A DNA stretch of 64,000 nucleotides, taken from positions 1-64,000 of the forward strand of contig CAVUWD010000011.1 in the NCBI GenBank assembly GCA_963745025.1, given 5' to 3'. The notes beneath the pieces were generated by a model, which worked only from the letters and a program-made list of their open reading frames with translations, had not been told where the DNA came from and did not search any database. Of the stretch, positions 3,151 to 47,761 are shown one piece after another. The position numbers were made by a program, and so were the translations under genes. Origin of the DNA: an uncultured delta proteobacterium (GTDB lineage Bacteria; Desulfobacterota; Binatia; JACPRU01). The first letter of the stretch is position 1; every line of letters starts with the position of its first letter.

Positions 3151-3975
3151 ATGGGTTCATCGACGTCGAACGCGATCTGGTACGTGTACGGCATCGTGCC
3201 GGCGAGCTTCTCGCCCGCGACGCTGCCGGCCGGCCTGGACGACACCGACGTCGCGCTCGAGCGAGGCGACGCACGTCGCCGCGTTGGTGTCGGCGCTTCC
3301 GGCGCTCGCAGTACGCAGCCGCCGACGCTCGAGGCGAACAGCGGCGACGTCGAGTGGCTGAGTCCTCGCGCCGTGGCGCACGATCGCGTGCTCACATGGG
3401 CGAGCGATCTTGGGCCGGTCGTTCCGCTGCCGATGTTCTCGCTGTTCAGCGGACGGCCCGCGGTGCGCGCGATGCTTCGCGACCGCGAGGCGGAGTTGGT
3501 GGCGACGCTCGGGCGCCTCGCCGAGGGGCGCGAGTACGCGTTGCGCGTGTACCGTGTCGACAGCGAGCTGCTGTCGGCGATCTCGACTCTCAGCCCGCGG
3601 CTCGCGGAGCTGGCGGCCACCGCTGCGGCGGCGTCGCCGGGGCAGCGCTACCTGCTCGAGCGAAAGCTCGATGCCGAGAAGAGGAACGAGATGCGAGCCG
3701 TGACGCAGCGTCTCGTCGACGAGATCGCGTCCGCGCTCGGCGCGGCGTCGCTGCAGTCGGTTCGGGTGGCCATTCCGCGCGCCGACGGTGACAGCGCGGC
3801 CCGCGGCGTGATGATTCTCAACGCGGCGTTCCTCGTCGCGCCGGCACGCTTGGAGTACTTTCAGCAAACGCTCACGTCGCTCGTCGAATGCCACGCCGCG
3901 CACGGGCTGCGGTTCGACTTTACCGGGCCTTGGCCACCGTATCATTTCGCGAGCGAGGCCGATCGTGGCGCCTGA
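3151..3975 (+). CDS. gvpL: Gas vesicle protein, GvpL/GvpF family (probably GvpL)
   Basis: WYVYGIV, WLSPRAVAHDRVL, SPGQRYLL, MILNAAFLV, FTGPWPPYHF. Confidence 0.85.
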   Translation: MGSSTSNAIWYVYGIVPASFSPATLPAGLDDTDVALERGDARRRVGVGASGARSTQPPTLEANSGDVEWLSPRAVAHDRVLTWASDLGPVVPLPMFSLFSGRPAVRAMLRDREAELVATLGRLAEGREYALRVYRVDSELLSAISTLSPRLAELAATAAAASPGQRYLLERKLDAEKRNEMRAVTQRLVDEIASALGAASLQSVRVAIPRADGDSAARGVMILNAAFLVAPARLEYFQQTLTSLVECHAAHGLRFDFTGPWPPYHFASEADRGA

Positions 3976-4195
3976 CGACGACGCTGGCATCGACGAGGAG
4001 CAGCTCGTCCTCGGCGATCTGCTCAACCACGTGCTCGACAAGGGTGTCGTGATCACGGGAACGGTCACGATCTCCGTCGCTGATATAGATCTACTCATGC
4101 TCGACCTTCGCCTGTTGCTGACGTCGATCGAGACCGCGATTCGACAACGGCGTCAACCCAACGCTGACACAGCTCGCCTCGCCGCCGGACGGACG
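3965..4195 (+). CDS. GvpA/GvpJ/GvpS-family gas vesicle protein
   Basis: LGDLLNHVLDKGVVITGTVTISVADIDLLMLDLRLLLTSIET is the GvpA-family signature; the 3' end is uncertain because the frame reads through into the next gene. Confidence 0.85.
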
Positions 4196-4562
4196 ATGAC
4201 GACTCATTTGTACTGCGTACTTCCAGATGACACGGGCGACGCGATCCCGCCGGGGTTGAGCGGGCTCGCCGGCGCCCGGGTACGCGCCCTGCCCGTGGAT
4301 GGCCTCGTGGCCTGGGTCAGCGACGTCGCGCGCGACGTCCCGGTCTCGATCGACGAGGTGCGCGCGCACGATGCGGTCGTCGAGGCGGCGCTGGAGACCG
4401 GTTCGACACCCGTGCCGGCGCGCTACGGCCAGCGCTTCGACGACGACGACGCCTGCCGCGCCGCGCTCGCCAATCGCGCCGACTCCGTCGAGTCGCTCGT
4501 CGCCGACATGCAGGGTTTCGTCGAGATGACGCTGATCGTCACGCCGTCGACGCGCCGAGCGA
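4196..4562 (+). CDS. Third GvpL/GvpF-family protein, truncated at a chimeric junction
   Basis: MTTHLYCVL, VRAHDAVVEAAL, PVPARYGQRF, GFVEMTL; similarity stops at ~4560 with no GPWPPY C-terminus. Confidence 0.78.
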
Positions 4563-4586
4563 TCTGCTTCAGACGTTGGTCTTGCT
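4563..4586. other. Chimeric junction 1 with adapter-like remnant
   Basis: The gvp gene and the EamA gene are both cut here; TTCAGACGTTGGTCTTGCT resembles the nanopore adapter end TTCAGTTACGTATTGCT. Confidence 0.6.
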
Positions 4587-5294
4587 CAGCAGATAGGCCA
4601 GCGGCGCCATCGACGCGACCAGCAGCGCATGCCGCCACTGCGCACGTGCCGCCTGCACGAAGGCCGGCAGGTCGTGCAAGGCGGCCGGCATGTGCATGGG
4701 CAGGCGCACTAGGTTGCACAGGCAGACGAAGAGCACCGGCTGGATCGCCAGCACCTTGATGGCATACCCGTCGATGAGCGTGTAGGTGGCGATGCTGAGC
4801 CCGGTGGCCGCGCCCCAACCCAGCCCGGCGAGCACGCGCCGGCGCTGTGCGGCGTCGTGGCTGCGCGCCCAGACCGCCGTGCCACCGGCCACGAGGAAGA
4901 TGCCGGCGACCACCAGCATCAGACCGGCCCCGCCGAGCCAGCTCATGGTTTCGCCCAGCAGCACGAGGGCCCCGAGCGAAGCCAGCAGAGGGCCGGTGCC
5001 GCGCGCCACCGGGTAGACCACGGTGAGGTCGCTCTGCGCATAACCGCGCAGCAAGGTGTGGAAGTAGACGAGGTTGGCCGCGGCACTCGCCACGATGGTG
5101 CACCACTCGCGCCAGCTCCAGCGCGGCACCGTCTCCCAGCCCAGCCACAGACCGAGTGGCGGCGCCAGCACCACCTGGAAGGCCGTGAGCAGCAGCGAGA
5201 AGCGGGCGTCGCCACCGGCCTTCTTCGCAACCACGTTCCAGAGCGCATGCAGCAGCGCCGCGGCAATGACGAGGGCCAGGGCCGGCAGCGACAT
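4587..5294 (-). CDS. EamA/DMT family transporter, 3'-truncated at the junction
   Basis: MSLPALALVIAAALLHALWNVVAKK, DLTVVYPVARGTGP, YTLIDGYAIK; the last helices are missing. Confidence 0.85.
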
Positions 5295-5298
5295 GTGC

Positions 5299-6195
5299 TC
5301 AGCCCAGCGCCAGGCCAGCCACGCCGAGCGGCGATGCACGCCGCGCCGACGATGCGCAGCCCGCGGTCGCCCTCGCCCAGCAGGCGCCCGCCGAGCAGCG
5401 CGGCGAACAGCATCGACACCTCGCGCGCCGGCGCCACGTGCGACAGCGGCGCCATCGTGCACCGCATACAGCACCAGCACGTAGGCCAGCGGGCTGATCG
5501 CCGCGATGCAGCAGCGCGTGCCTCCACTGCGCGCGCCAGGCCTCGGCGCAAGCCGGCGCGGTCGCGCAGCGCGGCCGGCAGCATGAACGGGATGCGCAGC
5601 AGGTTGCCGAAGTAGTCGACCAGCACCGGGCGAGATCAGCAGCACCTTGACCGCGTAGCCGTCGATGACGCGTGTAGCCGGCGATCAGCGCGCCGGTGAG
5701 CGCGCCCCAGCGCAGGCCGGCCAGCGTGCGCTGACGTTGCGCGGCGTCGTGCGACTTGCGCCCACAGGCCGGGCCGCCGGCGATCAGGAACACGCCGCCG
5801 TGCAAACCGCGATCACGCCAGCGGCGCCCAGCGCCGACAGCCGCTCGCCCAGCAGCAGCACCGCCGCGACCGCGGCCAGCAACGGGCCCGCGTGCCGCGC
5901 GCCACCGGGTAGACCACGCGTGAGGTCGGCCTCGCGGTAGCCGCGTCAGCAGCACGGTGAAGTACAGCAGGTGAATGACGGCGCTGCACGAGCAGCCGGC
6001 CCACTCGCGCACGCCCCAGCGCAGCCACTGCGTGCAGACCGAACCACAGCGCGACCGGCGCCCACAGCACGCAGGTGATCAGCACGCTCCATCAGCGCGA
6101 AGTGGTGGTTGCCGCCAGCCTTCTTGGCGGCGACGTTCCACAACGCATGCAGCATCGCGGCAACGAGCACGAGGCTCAGGGCGAAAGGCAGACAT
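5299..6195 (-). CDS. EamA/DMT family transporter (tandem paralog, frameshifted)
   Basis: LHALWNVAAKKAGG, VVYPVARGT, APLSHVAPAREVSMLFAALLGGRLLGE spread across several frames. Confidence 0.85.
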
Positions 6196-41500: not shown

Positions 41501-43779
41501 CTACCTCTCGCAGCCGAGCCCCGTAGCTTTCCGACAGGTGTCGACACCCAAACCCCCGTCAACGGTGTCCGTTCCCGCTCCGCCGTTCAAGCGGTCGTTG
41601 CCGCCGCCGCCGAGAAGGAGATCGTTGCCGTCGCCGCCACAAATCGTGTCGTTGCCACCCAGCCCCTCGATGGTGTCGCTTCCGAGGCCGCCTGCGAGGA
41701 CGTCGTCACCGTCCGTGCCGAAGATCACGTCGTCGCCGGCAGTGCAGAACACGTAGGTGAGGGGCGTAGAATTACAGGTGAGCGGTGTGCCTCTCACGCA
41801 CTTGTGGTTGGTCGTATTGCAAGTCTCGGTACCGTTGCAAACGTTCTTGTCGATGCAGTCTCTATTGCGACGGCAGCAGTCGCGAACCCCCGTGCCTTGG
41901 CAGTTCCCCTTCTTGCAGACGTCGTTAGCCGTGCAGGCGACGCCGTCGTCGCACGAACTGCCGTCCGCGAGAACGGTGTCGCATTCGCCCGATTCGGGGT
42001 TACAGGCCGTGCAGGAATTGGCGCAGACGACCGGATTGCCGCCCGTGCAGGTTCCGCCTTGGCACGTGTCGGTCTGCGTGCAGGCATCGTTGTCGTCACA
42101 CGCCGTACCGTCTGGCTTTGCCGGCCCCGAGCATTCTCCGGTGGACGGGTTGCAAACTCCTCCGTCGTGGCATTGATCGCTGGCCGTGCAGACGACGGGA
42201 TTGGAGCCGCTGCAGCTCCCGCTCTGGCAGGTGTCGGTCTGCGTGCAGGCGTTGCCGTCGTTGCAGGCGGCGCCGTTGGCCTTGGCGGGATTCGAGCACG
42301 CGCCCGTTGCCGGATTGCAGGTCCCCGCATCGTGGCACTGATCGCTGGCCGTGCAGACCACGGGGTTGGCGCCGGTGCACGCGCCCGCTCTGGCAGGTGT
42401 CGGTCTGCGTGCAGGCGTTGCCGTCGTTGCAGGAGACGCCGTCCGCCTTGGCGGGATTCGAGCAGACGCCGGTTCCGGAGTCGCAGGTCCCCGCGTCGTG
42501 GCACTGATCGCTGGCGCGTGCAGACCACGGGGTTGGCGCCGGTGCAGCGTGCCCGCTCTGGCAGGTGTCGGTCTGCGTGCAGGCGTTGCCGTCGTTGCAG
42601 GCGGCGCCGTTCGCCTTGGCGGGGTTCGAGCACACGCCGGTTCCGGAGTCGCACGTCCCCGCGTCGTGGCACTGGTCGCTGGCCGTGCAGACGACCGGGT
42701 TGGCGCCGCTGCAGCTCCCGCTCTGGCAGGTGTCGGTCTGCGTGCAGGCGTTGCCGTCGTTGCACGCGTCGCCGTTGGCCTTGGCGGGATTCGAGCACAC
42801 GCCGGTTCCGGGTCGCACGTCCCCGCGTCGTGGCACTGGTCGCTGGCCGTGCAGACGACGGGGTTGGCGCCGCTGCAGCTCCCGCTCTGGCAGGTGTCGG
42901 TCTGCGTGCAGGCGTTGCCGTCGTTGCAGCACGTCGCCGTTGGCCTTGGCGGGATTCGAGCAGACGCCGGTTCCGGAATCGCAGGTGCCCGCGTCGTGGC
43001 ACTGATCGCTGGCGGTGCAGACGACGGGGTTGGCGCCGGTGCAGCTCCCGCCTGGCAGGTGTCGGTCTGCGTGCAGGCGTTGCCGTCGTTGCAGCAAGTC
43101 GCCGTCGGCCTTGGCGGGATTCGAGCACACGCCGGTTCCGGATCGCAGGTGCCCGCGTCGTGGCACTGGTCGCTGGCGGTGCAGACGACGGGGTTGGCGC
43201 CGGTGCAGCTCCCGCCTGGCAGGTGTCGGTCTGCGTGCAGGCGTTGCCGTCGTTGCAGCGAGTCGCCGTCGGCCTTGGCGGGATTCGAGCACACGCCGGT
43301 TCCGGGTCGCAGGTGCCCGCGTCGTGGCACTGGTCGCTGGCGGTGCAGACGACGGGGTTGGAGCCGGTGCAGGCGCCCGCTCTGGCAGGTGTCGGTCTGC
43401 GTGCAGGCGTTGCCGTCGTTGCACGCCGCGCCGTTCGCCTTGGCGGGATTCGAGCACGCGCCGTCGCAGGGTTGCACGTCCCGGCGTCGTGGCACTGGTC
43501 GCTCGCCGTGCAGACGACCGGATTGGCGCCGGTGCAGACGCCGGCCTGGCAGGTGTCGGTCTGCGTGCAGGCGTTGCCGTCGTTACACGACGTTCCGTTC
43601 GGAGCCGCTGTGTAGTGGCAGTGTCCGGCTGCAGGAGGCAAGTATCGATCGTGCACGGGTCGCCATCGTTGCACTGCGAGTCCGCGGTGCATGATGCCGG
43701 GGGCGCCGCATGAACACTCGGTGCACACCCCGAGCAAGATGACTGATGTGAAGAGAATCGTTCCAAGAAGCTTCCGCAT
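41501..43779 (-). CDS. Secreted Cys-rich tandem-repeat protein with C-terminal RTX Ca2+-binding repeats (frameshifted within the repeats)
   Basis: Signal peptide [10 protein letters not shown]; about 10 units of [53 protein letters not shown]; GGxGxD nonapeptides at the C-terminus. Confidence 0.85.
42030..43600. repeat. Coding tandem repeat, ~165-bp unit, about 10 copies
   Basis: GGCAGGTGTCGGTCTGCGTGCAGGCGTTGCCGTCGTT recurs at intervals of about 165 bp, matching a 55-aa unit. Confidence 0.92.
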
Positions 43780-43956
43780 GATCTCGCCTCCGGAGCGCTC
43801 GGTATGCAAGGCTGTGCCAAGTTAAGTGACCCTTGAATTAGCCTGAGATTCTGGAGAAGACGTGGCGTGCAAAAAATGACGGTCTTTGACGACAGTGGCA
43901 AAATTCTGCCTTGCTTTAGCCTGCCGAGCTTTCCCTACACTTCGTTGCCCGAGCGG

Positions 43957-46112: not shown

Positions 46113-46288
46113 TGATGTCCCTTTCCAAGGGTGGCTCGGAGACGTTGGCACGACGAATCCTCTCCCGCAGGAGAGAACCGTGACATGGACGGGTTGCTGA
46201 AGAAGATTTTCGGCAACTGCTGTCACCCGTTCCCGATCTCCCGAGCGTAAGACGTGTCATTGAAACCGACACGCAGCCAGGAGGATCG

Positions 46289-46495
46289 TTGACCATGGAA
46301 GCGATCACGCACATCGCTGGACTCATCCCAGGTTTCCTCACCTCTCCGGCCGACCTGACCGTAGTGGAGCAGCTCGCTGCTCTAGGCGCGCTCGCCTGGA
46401 ACGTCGGCATTCTCGTCTTGGTCCGGGCGCTGGCGAGCCGCCGGCCGGCGGTTCGAGAGCGCGACCGCGGCGGCGAATACGACGAGGCGGCATGA
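46289..46495 (+). CDS. Small single-pass membrane protein at the head of the ECF operon
   Basis: AGGAGG RBS, hydrophobic stretch LAALGALAWNVGILVLV, ATGA overlap with the sigma gene. Confidence 0.55.
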   Translation: MTMEAITHIAGLIPGFLTSPADLTVVEQLAALGALAWNVGILVLVRALASRRPAVRERDRGGEYDEAA

Positions 46496-47043
46496 GTCAG
46501 GGCACGTCGACCATGGTCGCCCGCACCAGACGAAGCGAGACGGACGATCGCGAGCTGCTCGCGCGCGTCGCAGCCGGCGGCGAAGACGCGTTCATCGAGC
46601 TCGTTCGGCGCTATCAGCGCCGCTTCTACGGAATCGCGCGGCGCATGCTCGGCGATGATCGGGACGCGGAGGACGCGGTGCAGACGGCGTTCCTCCGCAT
46701 TCACCGCCACGCCGCCGCGTATCGCGAGGAGTGGAGCGGCGCGACGTGGCTCTACCGAATCCTCACCAACGTCGTGATCGATCACTGGCGCAAGCGCCGC
46801 CGGCTCGGTGAGGTCCCGCTGTCCGCGACCGACGTCGTCGGCACGGCGGGCAACGCGGAGCGAGTGGACGTCGACCGCGCGCTCGCCAAGCTTCCCGCCG
46901 AGGCACGCGCGATTCTCCTTCTCTGCTACGTCGAGGAGCTTCCCTATGCGGAGATCGCGCGCGCCCGGGGAATTTCCATCAACACGGTGAAGACACAGCT
47001 TCTGCGAGCCAAAGGGCTCATGAGGCGATACTTGAAGAGGTGA
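46492..47043 (+). CDS. ECF RNA polymerase sigma factor
   Basis: Region 2 (AFIELVRRY, DAEDAVQTAFL, TWLYRILTN) and region 4 (ALAKLP, YAEIA, INTVKTQLLRA). Confidence 0.94.
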   Translation: MSQGTSTMVARTRRSETDDRELLARVAAGGEDAFIELVRRYQRRFYGIARRMLGDDRDAEDAVQTAFLRIHRHAAAYREEWSGATWLYRILTNVVIDHWRKRRRLGEVPLSATDVVGTAGNAERVDVDRALAKLPAEARAILLLCYVEELPYAEIARARGISINTVKTQLLRAKGLMRRYLKR

Positions 47044-47047
47044 GACC

Positions 47048-47761
47048 ATGATCCATGGAACACACGACCACGACTTCCGCTCCGTGCTCGCTCCGCCGGC
47101 CGCGCCCGCGGGTCTTGCCGAGCGGGTGCTGCAAGCGGCGCGGGAGCGTCGCGAAACAGGCGCGCTGGCGCTACGCTTCGACATCGCGGCTTCCGAGCGC
47201 GGCGTGGCGCGGCTTCACCCGGGCAAGGGCGAGATCCGCGCGGAATCGCGCCGCGCGCGTACGCTCGCCGAGCGCGCCCGCGAGGAGCTCGGCGAGTACC
47301 TCGAGGGTTTGCGCAGCTACTTCACAGTCCCGATCGATCTTGGCGCAACCGCCGGCTTTCAACGCGCGGTCCTGGAGGCGGCTCGCGCGATTCCGTTCGG
47401 CGAGGTGCGATCCTACGGCTGGGTCGCCGAGCACATCGGCAAACCGCGTGCCGTCCGCGCGGTCGGCACGGCGCTCGGGCGAAATCCCGTTCCACTCGTC
47501 GTTCCCTGCCACCGCGTGCTGCGCTCCGACGGCAGTCTCGGCGGCTACGGCCTCGGCCTCGACCTGAAGAGCCGCCTCCTCTCGCTCGAGCGCGAGACGC
47601 CGGCAATCGTCGGATCCGATACGACCCGCATCGTCTGCCGCCACGGCTGCGCGAACGAGCAACGCATCGCCGAGCGGCACCGGGTGGTGTTCGCGACGAT
47701 CGCCGAGGCCCGGCAAGCGGGCTACCGCCGCTGCCGCCGCTGCCTGCCGGCCGACCACTGA
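47048..47761 (+). CDS. O6-methylguanine-DNA methyltransferase with N-terminal anti-sigma-like helix and C-terminal Ada-type Zn domain
   Basis: IPFGEVRSY, AVRAVGTALGRNP and active site PCHRV; C-terminal TTRIVCRHGC..AGYRRCRRC; N-terminal PAAPAGLAERVL. Confidence 0.88.
   Translation: MIHGTHDHDFRSVLAPPAAPAGLAERVLQAARERRETGALALRFDIAASERGVARLHPGKGEIRAESRRARTLAERAREELGEYLEGLRSYFTVPIDLGATAGFQRAVLEAARAIPFGEVRSYGWVAEHIGKPRAVRAVGTALGRNPVPLVVPCHRVLRSDGSLGGYGLGLDLKSRLLSLERETPAIVGSDTTRIVCRHGCANEQRIAERHRVVFATIAEARQAGYRRCRRCLPADH

Follow-up and report, generated by a model that had tools for sequence, protein, structure and literature searches.

The first 64,000 nucleotides (nt) of contig CAVUWD010000011.1 from an uncultured delta proteobacterium (assembly GCA_963745025.1; GTDB lineage Desulfobacterota, Binatia, JACPRU01), here called the window, carry a gene for a sigma factor of the extracytoplasmic function (ECF) type followed by a gene for a predicted DNA-repair methyltransferase that combines an Ogt-type alkyltransferase core with an Ada-type zinc domain (Ogt-AdaZn). 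Together with a small membrane open reading frame (ORF) these genes are arranged head to tail on the plus strand (Table 1). The methyltransferase gene begins 4 nt past the stop codon of the sigma gene, and a GAGGTG site is located within the 3' end of the latter. A previous interpretation of this DNA, made from the letters alone and referred to below as the sequence-only reading, had described an ECF sigma factor with a methyltransferase starting 4 bp after its stop codon, and this is what both the ORFs and the Pfam domains show. The flanking genes are unrelated, with genes for a DUF488 protein and an FAD oxidoreductase upstream and genes for acyl-CoA carboxylase subunits downstream.

Table 1. 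Positions of the genes, protein segments and candidate regulatory region at the sigma-methyltransferase locus of the window
Feature	Position in window	Strand	Basis or remark
Candidate regulatory/promoter region upstream of the operon	46222..46253	+	Read from the sequence, regex match
Small membrane ORF, 66 amino acids	46295..46495	+	ATG start favoured; TTG at 46289 is an alternative start
ECF-type sigma factor, 183 amino acids, regions 2 and 4	46492..47043	+	Pfam and NCBIfam profiles
Ogt-AdaZn methyltransferase, 237 amino acids	47048..47761	+	Pfam and NCBIfam profiles
N-terminal extension of the methyltransferase, residues 1-40 (candidate sigma-contact segment)	47048..47167	+	AlphaFold2 model, conserved motif
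Two-domain O6-alkylguanine-DNA alkyltransferase core, residues 41-182	47168..47593	+	PF01035, TIGR00589, Foldseek
C-terminal Ada-type Zn(Cys)4 domain, residues 187-234	47606..47749	+	PF02805, Foldseek

The window sigma is a standard ECF sigma factor of about 180 amino acids (aa) that contains sigma-70 regions 2 and 4 only. Both regions were identified with Pfam (Sigma70_r2, E = 1.9e-18; Sigma70_r4_2, E = 1.9e-17), the Sigma70_ECF profile also matched, and the score against the TIGR02937 sigma70-ECF profile was 94.4 bits at a cutoff of 42.9. The methyltransferase matched DNA_binding_1 (PF01035) at residues 104-182 (E = 1.3e-32) and TIGR00589 with 103 bits. Its active-site motif PCHRV occupies residues 153-157 (nt 47504-47518), with C154 as the catalytic cysteine. 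The match to Ada_Zn_binding (PF02805; E = 8.3e-9) covers positions 18-64 of the 65 in the profile, such that the zinc domain is without the first 17 profile positions, and the relatives likewise match from positions 10-26 to 60-65. The whole protein contains exactly five cysteines, which are C154 and the zinc cysteines C197, C201, C229 and C232. No Pfam match was obtained in the window methyltransferase to a helix-turn-helix (HTH) of the AraC type (HTH_AraC/HTH_18) or to Methyltransf_1N. The order of the domains is opposite to that in the canonical Ada protein of one of the loci compared below (L066; Ada_Zn at residues 17-81, HTH_18 at 113-190 and DNA_binding_1 at 280-360). The PCHRV site, the C-terminal four-cysteine domain of the Ada type, the reversed domain order and the lack of an AraC HTH had all been proposed in the sequence-only reading, and all were borne out by the Pfam searches and the comparison with L066.

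An AlphaFold2 model of the methyltransferase, built from an alignment of 61 sequences, had a mean predicted local distance difference test (pLDDT) score of 89.5. Confidence was high over residues 41-237 and lower over residues 1-40, for which the means of consecutive blocks were 56, 75, 82 and 65. A Foldseek search aligned the model to solved two-domain OGT structures over 164 columns (target TM-score 0.70, E = 2.7e-12), and by this match an N-terminal ribonuclease-like domain is present despite the lack of a Methyltransf_1N score. The C-terminus matched the N-Ada structures 1u8b, 1wpk, 1zgw and 1adn over 49-67 columns with Foldseek probabilities of at least 0.99. Residues Y123, R137, N146, C154, H155, R156, Y167 and E181 were invariant in all 61 sequences; we take the conserved tyrosine, arginine finger, asparagine, histidine and glutamate to be residues of the alkyltransferase pocket. 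The four zinc cysteines were invariant in all 15 close relatives and conserved to at least 90% across the 61 sequences. Judged from the alignment, the partner of the sigma factor retains every residue needed for O6-alkylguanine transfer as well as an Ada-type Zn(Cys)4 centre, and in sequence and model it looks catalytically competent at both centres.

To place the locus among its relatives, we used a word-indexed protein search, which yielded 4941 relatives at E <= 0.001. Among the best 120 relatives listed, 118 contained both PF01035 and PF02805 and most were 217-257 aa in size; the few of those listed that had a source label came from Deltaproteobacteria, Binatia, and NC10 or Methylomirabilota. 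For the analysis of gene neighbourhoods, we scanned one genome per species with two conserved peptides taken from the alignment and retained the best 80 of 588 relatives (loci with L numbers), a sample that is biased toward the nearest kin of the query because only the best 80 were kept. Sigma ORFs were located by phmmer with the window sigma, and the starts of the Ogt genes were called relative to the sigma stop codon. Nine loci had too little upstream sequence, leaving 71 that were assessable.

In 66 of the 80 loci, and in 63 of the 71 assessable ones, the gene immediately before Ogt encodes an ECF sigma factor and has the same orientation. The spacing between the two genes was -4 nt (ATGA overlap) in 59 loci and -8, +1 and +4 nt in one locus each, with larger distances in four loci (L024, L033, L049 and L071), among which there is at least one with a frameshift. 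The assessable loci comprised 57 with both Ada_Zn and sigma, 6 with sigma and no Ada_Zn, 7 with neither, and a single one (L003) with Ada_Zn and no sigma. All seven loci whose protein has neither a C-terminal Ada_Zn domain nor an N-terminal extension are without the sigma gene and encode a plain Ogt or, in L066, the canonical Ada. A Pfam scan of 60 coupled proteins found DNA_binding_1 together with Ada_Zn_binding in 56; the four exceptions are L064, which has no second domain, and L076, L078 and L079, which have Methyltransf_1N. All of the 61 aligned sigmas contained Sigma70_r2 and Sigma70_r4_2.

As labelled, the carriers belong to Chloroflexota, Actinomycetota (including the cultured Nonomuraea and Actinokineospora), Dormibacterota, Acidobacteriota, Binatia, Methylomirabilota, Entotheonella, an Eremiobacterota bin and one Gammaproteobacteria bin. 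The pair spans about nine phylum-level groups and is translationally coupled. Chance adjacency is excluded, since 63 of 71 loci were paired against a background of about 10 ECFs per genome, the figure given in the abstract of PMC7826278. The sequence-only reading had suggested a survey of gene neighbourhoods and had named a lack of conservation in other genomes as grounds for giving up its interpretation; the pairing turned out to be conserved and these grounds fall away.

Besides the sigma factor and Ogt, there is no consistently conserved neighbour gene. The ORFs downstream of the pair (n = 56) were varied and included EamA in 18 cases (Chloroflexota), a PF09859 oxygenase in 3, transketolase in 3, LigD in 2 and a second Ogt-AdaZn gene in 1, with the remainder diverse or without assignment. 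The PF09859 oxygenase, a family annotated for damaged DNA, is located directly after the methyltransferase gene in L002 (4639-5379), L019 (4715-5914) and L078 (4330-5064), and its presence in three distant lineages is a hint that some carriers possess a small operon for alkylation repair. The second Ogt-AdaZn gene belongs to a Ktedonobacteria bin (L048), where tandem Ogt-Ada_Zn copies (3527-4453 and 4432-5358) are located behind one sigma gene; the sigma and the first Ogt-Ada_Zn copy of this locus are both placed on long branches. In Nonomuraea, an ordinary ECF sigma gene accompanied by a zf-HC2 anti-sigma gene (L005, 2-1060; L004, 14-571) is situated some 3 kb ahead of the sigma and Ogt genes, with genes for thioredoxin, rhodanese and DUF1416 in between.

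Frameshifts were common in the gene copies from long-read bins and in metagenome proteins (L024, 3401-4471; P0121, P0122 and P0141-P0186 among the protein matches), and frameshifted copies give rise to false fusions and domain-less proteins. The in-frame ORF of L024 that joins sigma region 4 to Ogt was rejected as a natural fusion and taken to be a frameshift in a long-read bin. The gene in L003 (3765-4507) is also frameshifted, and its product lacks the N-terminal helix.

We also examined the relationships of the two proteins using quick maximum-likelihood trees, in which the sigmas were rooted against three uncoupled ECF outgroups taken from the loci and the methyltransferases were analysed with eight uncoupled Ogt proteins. 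Both trees gave the same three groups, and the sub-clades also agreed. The first group consists of the window, L001 and L002, with support values of 97 (sigma) and 92 (methyltransferase) in the Shimodaira-Hasegawa-like approximate likelihood ratio test (SH-aLRT), the second of L076, L078 and L079, and the third, the large clade, comprises 54-55 sequences. The window sigma grouped with those of Binatia L001 (60% identity) and Methylomirabilota L002. As read from these topologies, the sigma and methyltransferase genes are inherited together as a unit. Within both trees, the sigma-Ogt pair of a Gammaproteobacteria-labelled bin was placed as sister to an Acidimicrobiia pair (loci L017 and L021; SH-aLRT 99 and 100), which points to transfer of the whole cassette or to mis-binning.

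An N-terminal extension of about 25-40 aa precedes the canonical Ogt N-domain in all coupled proteins. In the Ada_Zn forms it follows the pattern L..L..L...AP..L...VL...GL.D.Y, in which the positions of L14 and P20 in the window protein hardly vary, and the model of the window protein contains a short helix at residues 10-13 and a 14-residue helix at residues 23-36. In the ECF122-like forms, this place is taken by an amphipathic helix of another kind. The shift is reflected in the position of the PCHR motif, with a median of 165 (range 135-215) in 62 coupled proteins, 153 in the window protein and about 126-132 in plain Ogt, the last figure being obtained after the start of L058, which runs into the upstream der gene, was moved to the first internal methionine. 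The extension tracks the sigma factor rather than the zinc domain, because it is absent from plain Ogt and present in the sigma-coupled forms that have no zinc domain.

A search with the extension profile against 1.84 billion representatives gave 200 proteins at E <= 0.001. Among the 55 matches of at least 140 aa that were scanned for domains, 23 had DNA_binding_1 and/or Ada_Zn_binding, 1 had Sigma70_r2 (a read-through) and 2 had EamA, 3 were unrelated or of low complexity (P0137, P0248 and P0250) and 26 were without any domain. The eight domain-less matches that were inspected (P0141, P0148, P0154, P0159, P0164, P0168, P0186 and P0230) proved to be this same gene with frameshifts, and all nine matches read individually were members of the family or frameshifted versions of it. 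Nothing among these 55 matches points to a use of the extension together with other sensor domains. The results support the extension as a family-specific module linked to the sigma factor.

We further searched the upstream regions for shared motifs. A word search with two blocks recovered, for the largest clade, TGCAAC together with GTTC in 27 of 60 upstream regions, compared to a maximum of 14 in 20 shuffles. The pattern GCAAC-N14-18-GTT[CT] was present in 36 of 62 coupled loci (620 nt searched), compared to a background rate of 0.056 per kb and strand over all loci, and in 25 sequences it was located 28-44 nt (about 36) before the called sigma start, which typically reads ...GTGATGGA. With the motif at this distance, the sigma mRNA should have a very short leader. 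Across L004-L065 (for example L020, L046 and L052) the motif has the sharply conserved form TGCAAC-N16/17-G(G/T)GTTCT in several phyla. Since it is not sigma-70-like, self-transcription by the ECF sigma factor is the natural reading, and we infer that the sigma of the large clade transcribes its own operon. In L076 and L078, the motif CTCAC-N17-CGT(C/T)... is located 35 nt before the sigma gene, in agreement with the ECF122 motif in the group entry of the PMC7826278 supplement.

The ECF122-type motif CTCAC/CGTCTAC was not found in the window, L001 or L002. The candidate in the window consists of GTCAC (46222-46226), 19 nt and CGTAAGAC (46246-46253), compared to 17 nt in the ECF122 motif of L076 and L078. 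A block at 46226-46242 of the window is common with Methylomirabilota L002 (~3365-3385) at about 16 of 18 positions and is followed by CGTA. This block of ~17 nt reads CCCGTTyC.CGATCTCCC, and its reverse complement contains a GGAAC-like word. The comparison of the upstream regions of the window clade, which involves three sequences and a poor MAFFT alignment, gave only this one shared block and the GTCAC...CGTA pattern.

The small membrane ORF is preceded by a ribosome-binding site (AGGAGGA, 46279-46285), and its stop codon overlaps the ATG of the sigma gene (ATGA). Its product contains one hydrophobic helix, with a Kyte-Doolittle maximum of 1.86 over residues 29-47, and had no Pfam or NCBIfam match. 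BLASTP retrieved four relatives only, of 66-69 aa and 65-83% identity, for which reason the ORF is probably real but lineage-restricted. No such ORF is present upstream of the sigma gene in any of the 80 loci, L001 and L002 included, where the preceding genes encode a P450 and a transaldolase, respectively. The sequence-only reading had spoken of a tightly coupled trio; this holds for the arrangement of the genes in the window but not for a conserved unit, and we rejected the small ORF as part of the conserved module.

Elsewhere in the window, the minus strand at 41501-43901 encodes a long repeat protein rich in cysteine, which begins with a stretch resembling a signal peptide and has C-terminal GG.G.D repeats of the calcium-binding type. 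Because the repeat unit is found in three overlapping reading frames, this gene is either several times frameshifted or its repeats are mis-assembled.

The conserved pairing suggests that the sigma factor may be turned on when the repair protein is consumed. In the interpretation that we favour, which we regard as plausible while stopping somewhat short of calling it probable, the sigma factor and Ogt-AdaZn form a conserved two-gene cassette for alkylation damage in which the repair protein holds the sigma factor and methylation sets it free. The repair protein would then be the cognate regulator of the sigma factor, which it would hold by the short N-terminal extension. A methyl group would be transferred irreversibly to C154 from O6-alkylguanine or, by analogy with Ada, to C197 from a methylphosphotriester. 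The alkylated protein would be altered or destabilised and the sigma factor released. Alkylated forms of alkyltransferases are destabilised, and the Foldseek matches included solved structures of methylated alkyltransferases, such as 1eh7 and 4zyg. The freed sigma factor would transcribe its own operon and thereby replace the consumed repair protein, and fresh, unalkylated protein would shut it off again. The net effect would be an adaptive response that takes the consumption of a suicide enzyme as its input and has a sigma factor for its output, where Ada has an AraC domain. As a generalisation, which we put forward tentatively and with rather more doubt, a suicide repair enzyme may double as an anti-sigma factor in Chloroflexota, Actinomycetota, Binatia, Methylomirabilota, Dormibacterota, Acidobacteriota and others, and so provide a widespread adaptive response of a different design from Ada/AraC.

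Several observations weigh against this interpretation. The extension is a candidate contact segment for the sigma factor, and there is no evident route from methylation of the core or the zinc domain to the N-terminal helix. The stretch that the sequence-only reading had likened to the last helix of anti-sigma domains (residues 17-28) exists and is conserved in the relatives, but the likeness could not be upheld in profile searches with Pfam and the PDB: none of 56 N-extensions matched an anti-sigma family in Pfam at E values up to 10, neither of the zf-HC2 nor of the RskA type, and the best hit of the extension profile (56 sequences) among PDB chains was unrelated (E = 0.36). A class I anti-sigma domain is also longer than the extension. 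L003, which ranks first among the loci in identity over the stretch that aligns (66%, residues 80-230), encodes a protein of the Ada_Zn form and has no sigma gene. No fusion of sigma and Ogt was found, the 11 longer relatives being without sigma domains in what was a weak search; the two top ones are frameshift read-throughs into a downstream oxygenase. The congruence of the trees is equally expected from vertical descent of the operon. Finally, the window, L001 and L002 are without the conserved promoter of the large clade, and autoregulation does not follow for the window clade for this reason.

An explanation that we consider unlikely, while taking it seriously, is that the two genes are co-transcribed and nothing more, with the sigma factor driving the operon, the repair protein making no contact with it, and the signal arriving by another regulator or an unlinked anti-sigma factor. 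The lack of a detectable anti-sigma domain in the extension and the existence in L003 of the repair protein without a sigma gene are in line with this, as are the published group descriptions, in that the entries in the PMC7826278 supplement give no putative anti-sigma factor for ECF122 and suggest TetR control for ECF203, and the relevant passage of PMC8999054 places ECF203 under transcriptional regulation. Co-transcription by itself is less easily reconciled with the absence of any other gene conserved beside the pair and with the restriction of the N-extension to the sigma-coupled forms. The 4-nt overlap in 59 loci is also in keeping with co-production in stoichiometric amounts, as is typical of sigma/anti-sigma pairs, and in ECF systems an autoregulated promoter without an inhibitor would run away.

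We regard it as improbable that the repair protein is instead a co-activator, which would ride on the sigma factor by means of the extension and, once its zinc cysteine is methylated, gain affinity for DNA and aid the holoenzyme at the promoter. In E. coli Ada, activation is switched on by the Zn(Cys)4 domain, and methylated Ada gains affinity for DNA; among the 60 coupled proteins scanned, 56 retain this domain. The protein has no sequence-specific HTH, which is compatible with such a role, and promoter specificity would for that reason have to come from the sigma factor. However, L076, L078, L079 and L064 have both the sigma gene and the N-extension without a zinc domain, so that the latter is not essential to the coupling, and we know of no precedent for an ECF sigma factor that needs a helper of this kind. 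It is very improbable indeed that the small membrane ORF encodes a local anti-sigma factor in the window lineage, with the methyltransferase being simply a target gene. Some small single-pass anti-sigma factors of the CnrY type are encoded upstream of their sigma, and the ORF, which extends over the start of the sigma gene behind a strong ribosome-binding site, is conserved in four relatives; yet it is missing wherever else the sigma-Ogt pair is kept, including L001 and L002, has no family match and would, as read from the sequence, expose only ~20 residues to the cytoplasm if the arginine-rich tail is inside.

If the repair protein does hold and release the sigma factor, this would represent a new input logic for sigma/anti-sigma switches, driven by irreversible covalent chemistry instead of a reversible ligand or a proteolytic cascade, and a second widespread bacterial design for the adaptive response to alkylation.

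The window system resembles E. coli Ada in that a Zn(Cys)4 domain of the methylphosphotriester type and a PCHRV O6-alkylguanine transferase are combined in one polypeptide. It differs in the reversed order of these domains, in the absence of the AraC HTH and of the first 17 profile positions of the zinc domain, and in that its transcriptional output would be a separate sigma factor. RsrA and ChrR are zinc-binding anti-sigma factors in which chemistry at a zinc-bound cysteine frees an ECF sigma factor encoded by the adjacent gene. The likeness to these is one of concept, namely chemistry at zinc cysteines of a cytoplasmic partner encoded beside an ECF sigma factor, whereas the window protein has neither zf-HC2 nor any other anti-sigma domain, its zinc site is a repair centre of the Ada type, and its modification would be an irreversible alkylation rather than a reversible oxidation. 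Like anti-sigma factors in general, partners of the window type are encoded next to the sigma factor, co-translated and co-inherited with it.

Full-text literature searches gave only the review PMC8999054 and the 2021 reclassification of ECFs by Casas-Pastor et al. (PMC7826278), and no experimental work on an interaction between sigma and Ogt was found in these searches. At least two ECF groups in this literature, listed since that reclassification, are relevant, and the comparison with them was based on the published group descriptions. In the group entries of the PMC7826278 supplement, ECF122 is 100% actinobacterial, has no anti-sigma factor and has MGMT at position +1 in all subgroups, while ECF203, also from Actinobacteria, has an O6-methylguanine methyltransferase at +1 along with Ada_Zn_binding, TetR and MFS proteins. 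Both groups are listed under 'unknown mechanism' in the part of PMC8999054 that deals with them. Like ECF122, the window sigma has an MGMT-family protein at +1 and no recognisable anti-sigma factor, and L076, L078 and L079 fit this group with their Methyltransf_1N and DNA_binding_1 domains. Unlike ECF122, which is reported from Actinobacteria, the window has its nearest relatives in Binatia and Methylomirabilota, its protein has a C-terminal Ada_Zn domain and no Pfam match to Methyltransf_1N, and its sigma belongs to a clade apart from L076, L078 and L079, with a spacing of N19 in the candidate promoter versus N17. With ECF203 it has in common the order of sigma and methyltransferase and an Ada zinc domain in the neighbourhood; it differs in that neither TetR nor MFS genes adjoin the pair and in that the window is not actinobacterial. 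According to the same supplement entry, the authors proposed TetR, and not the methyltransferase, as the regulator of ECF203, which is a further difference and another point against the regulatory role that we favour for the repair protein. An assignment of the Nonomuraea loci to ECF203 by TetR/MFS neighbours was unsupported, since neither of these genes adjoins the pair in L005.

The pairing is already catalogued for Actinobacteria, and the window represents a variant from a different, Binatia/Methylomirabilota-like lineage with a distinct sigma clade. To the catalogue our analysis adds the reach beyond Actinobacteria, Ogt-Ada_Zn as the common form, the private N-terminal extension and the promoter of the large clade. 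With these additions, the catalogue entry becomes a testable model of a damage sensor based on covalent chemistry, for which the cultured carriers Nonomuraea and Actinokineospora allow bench tests.

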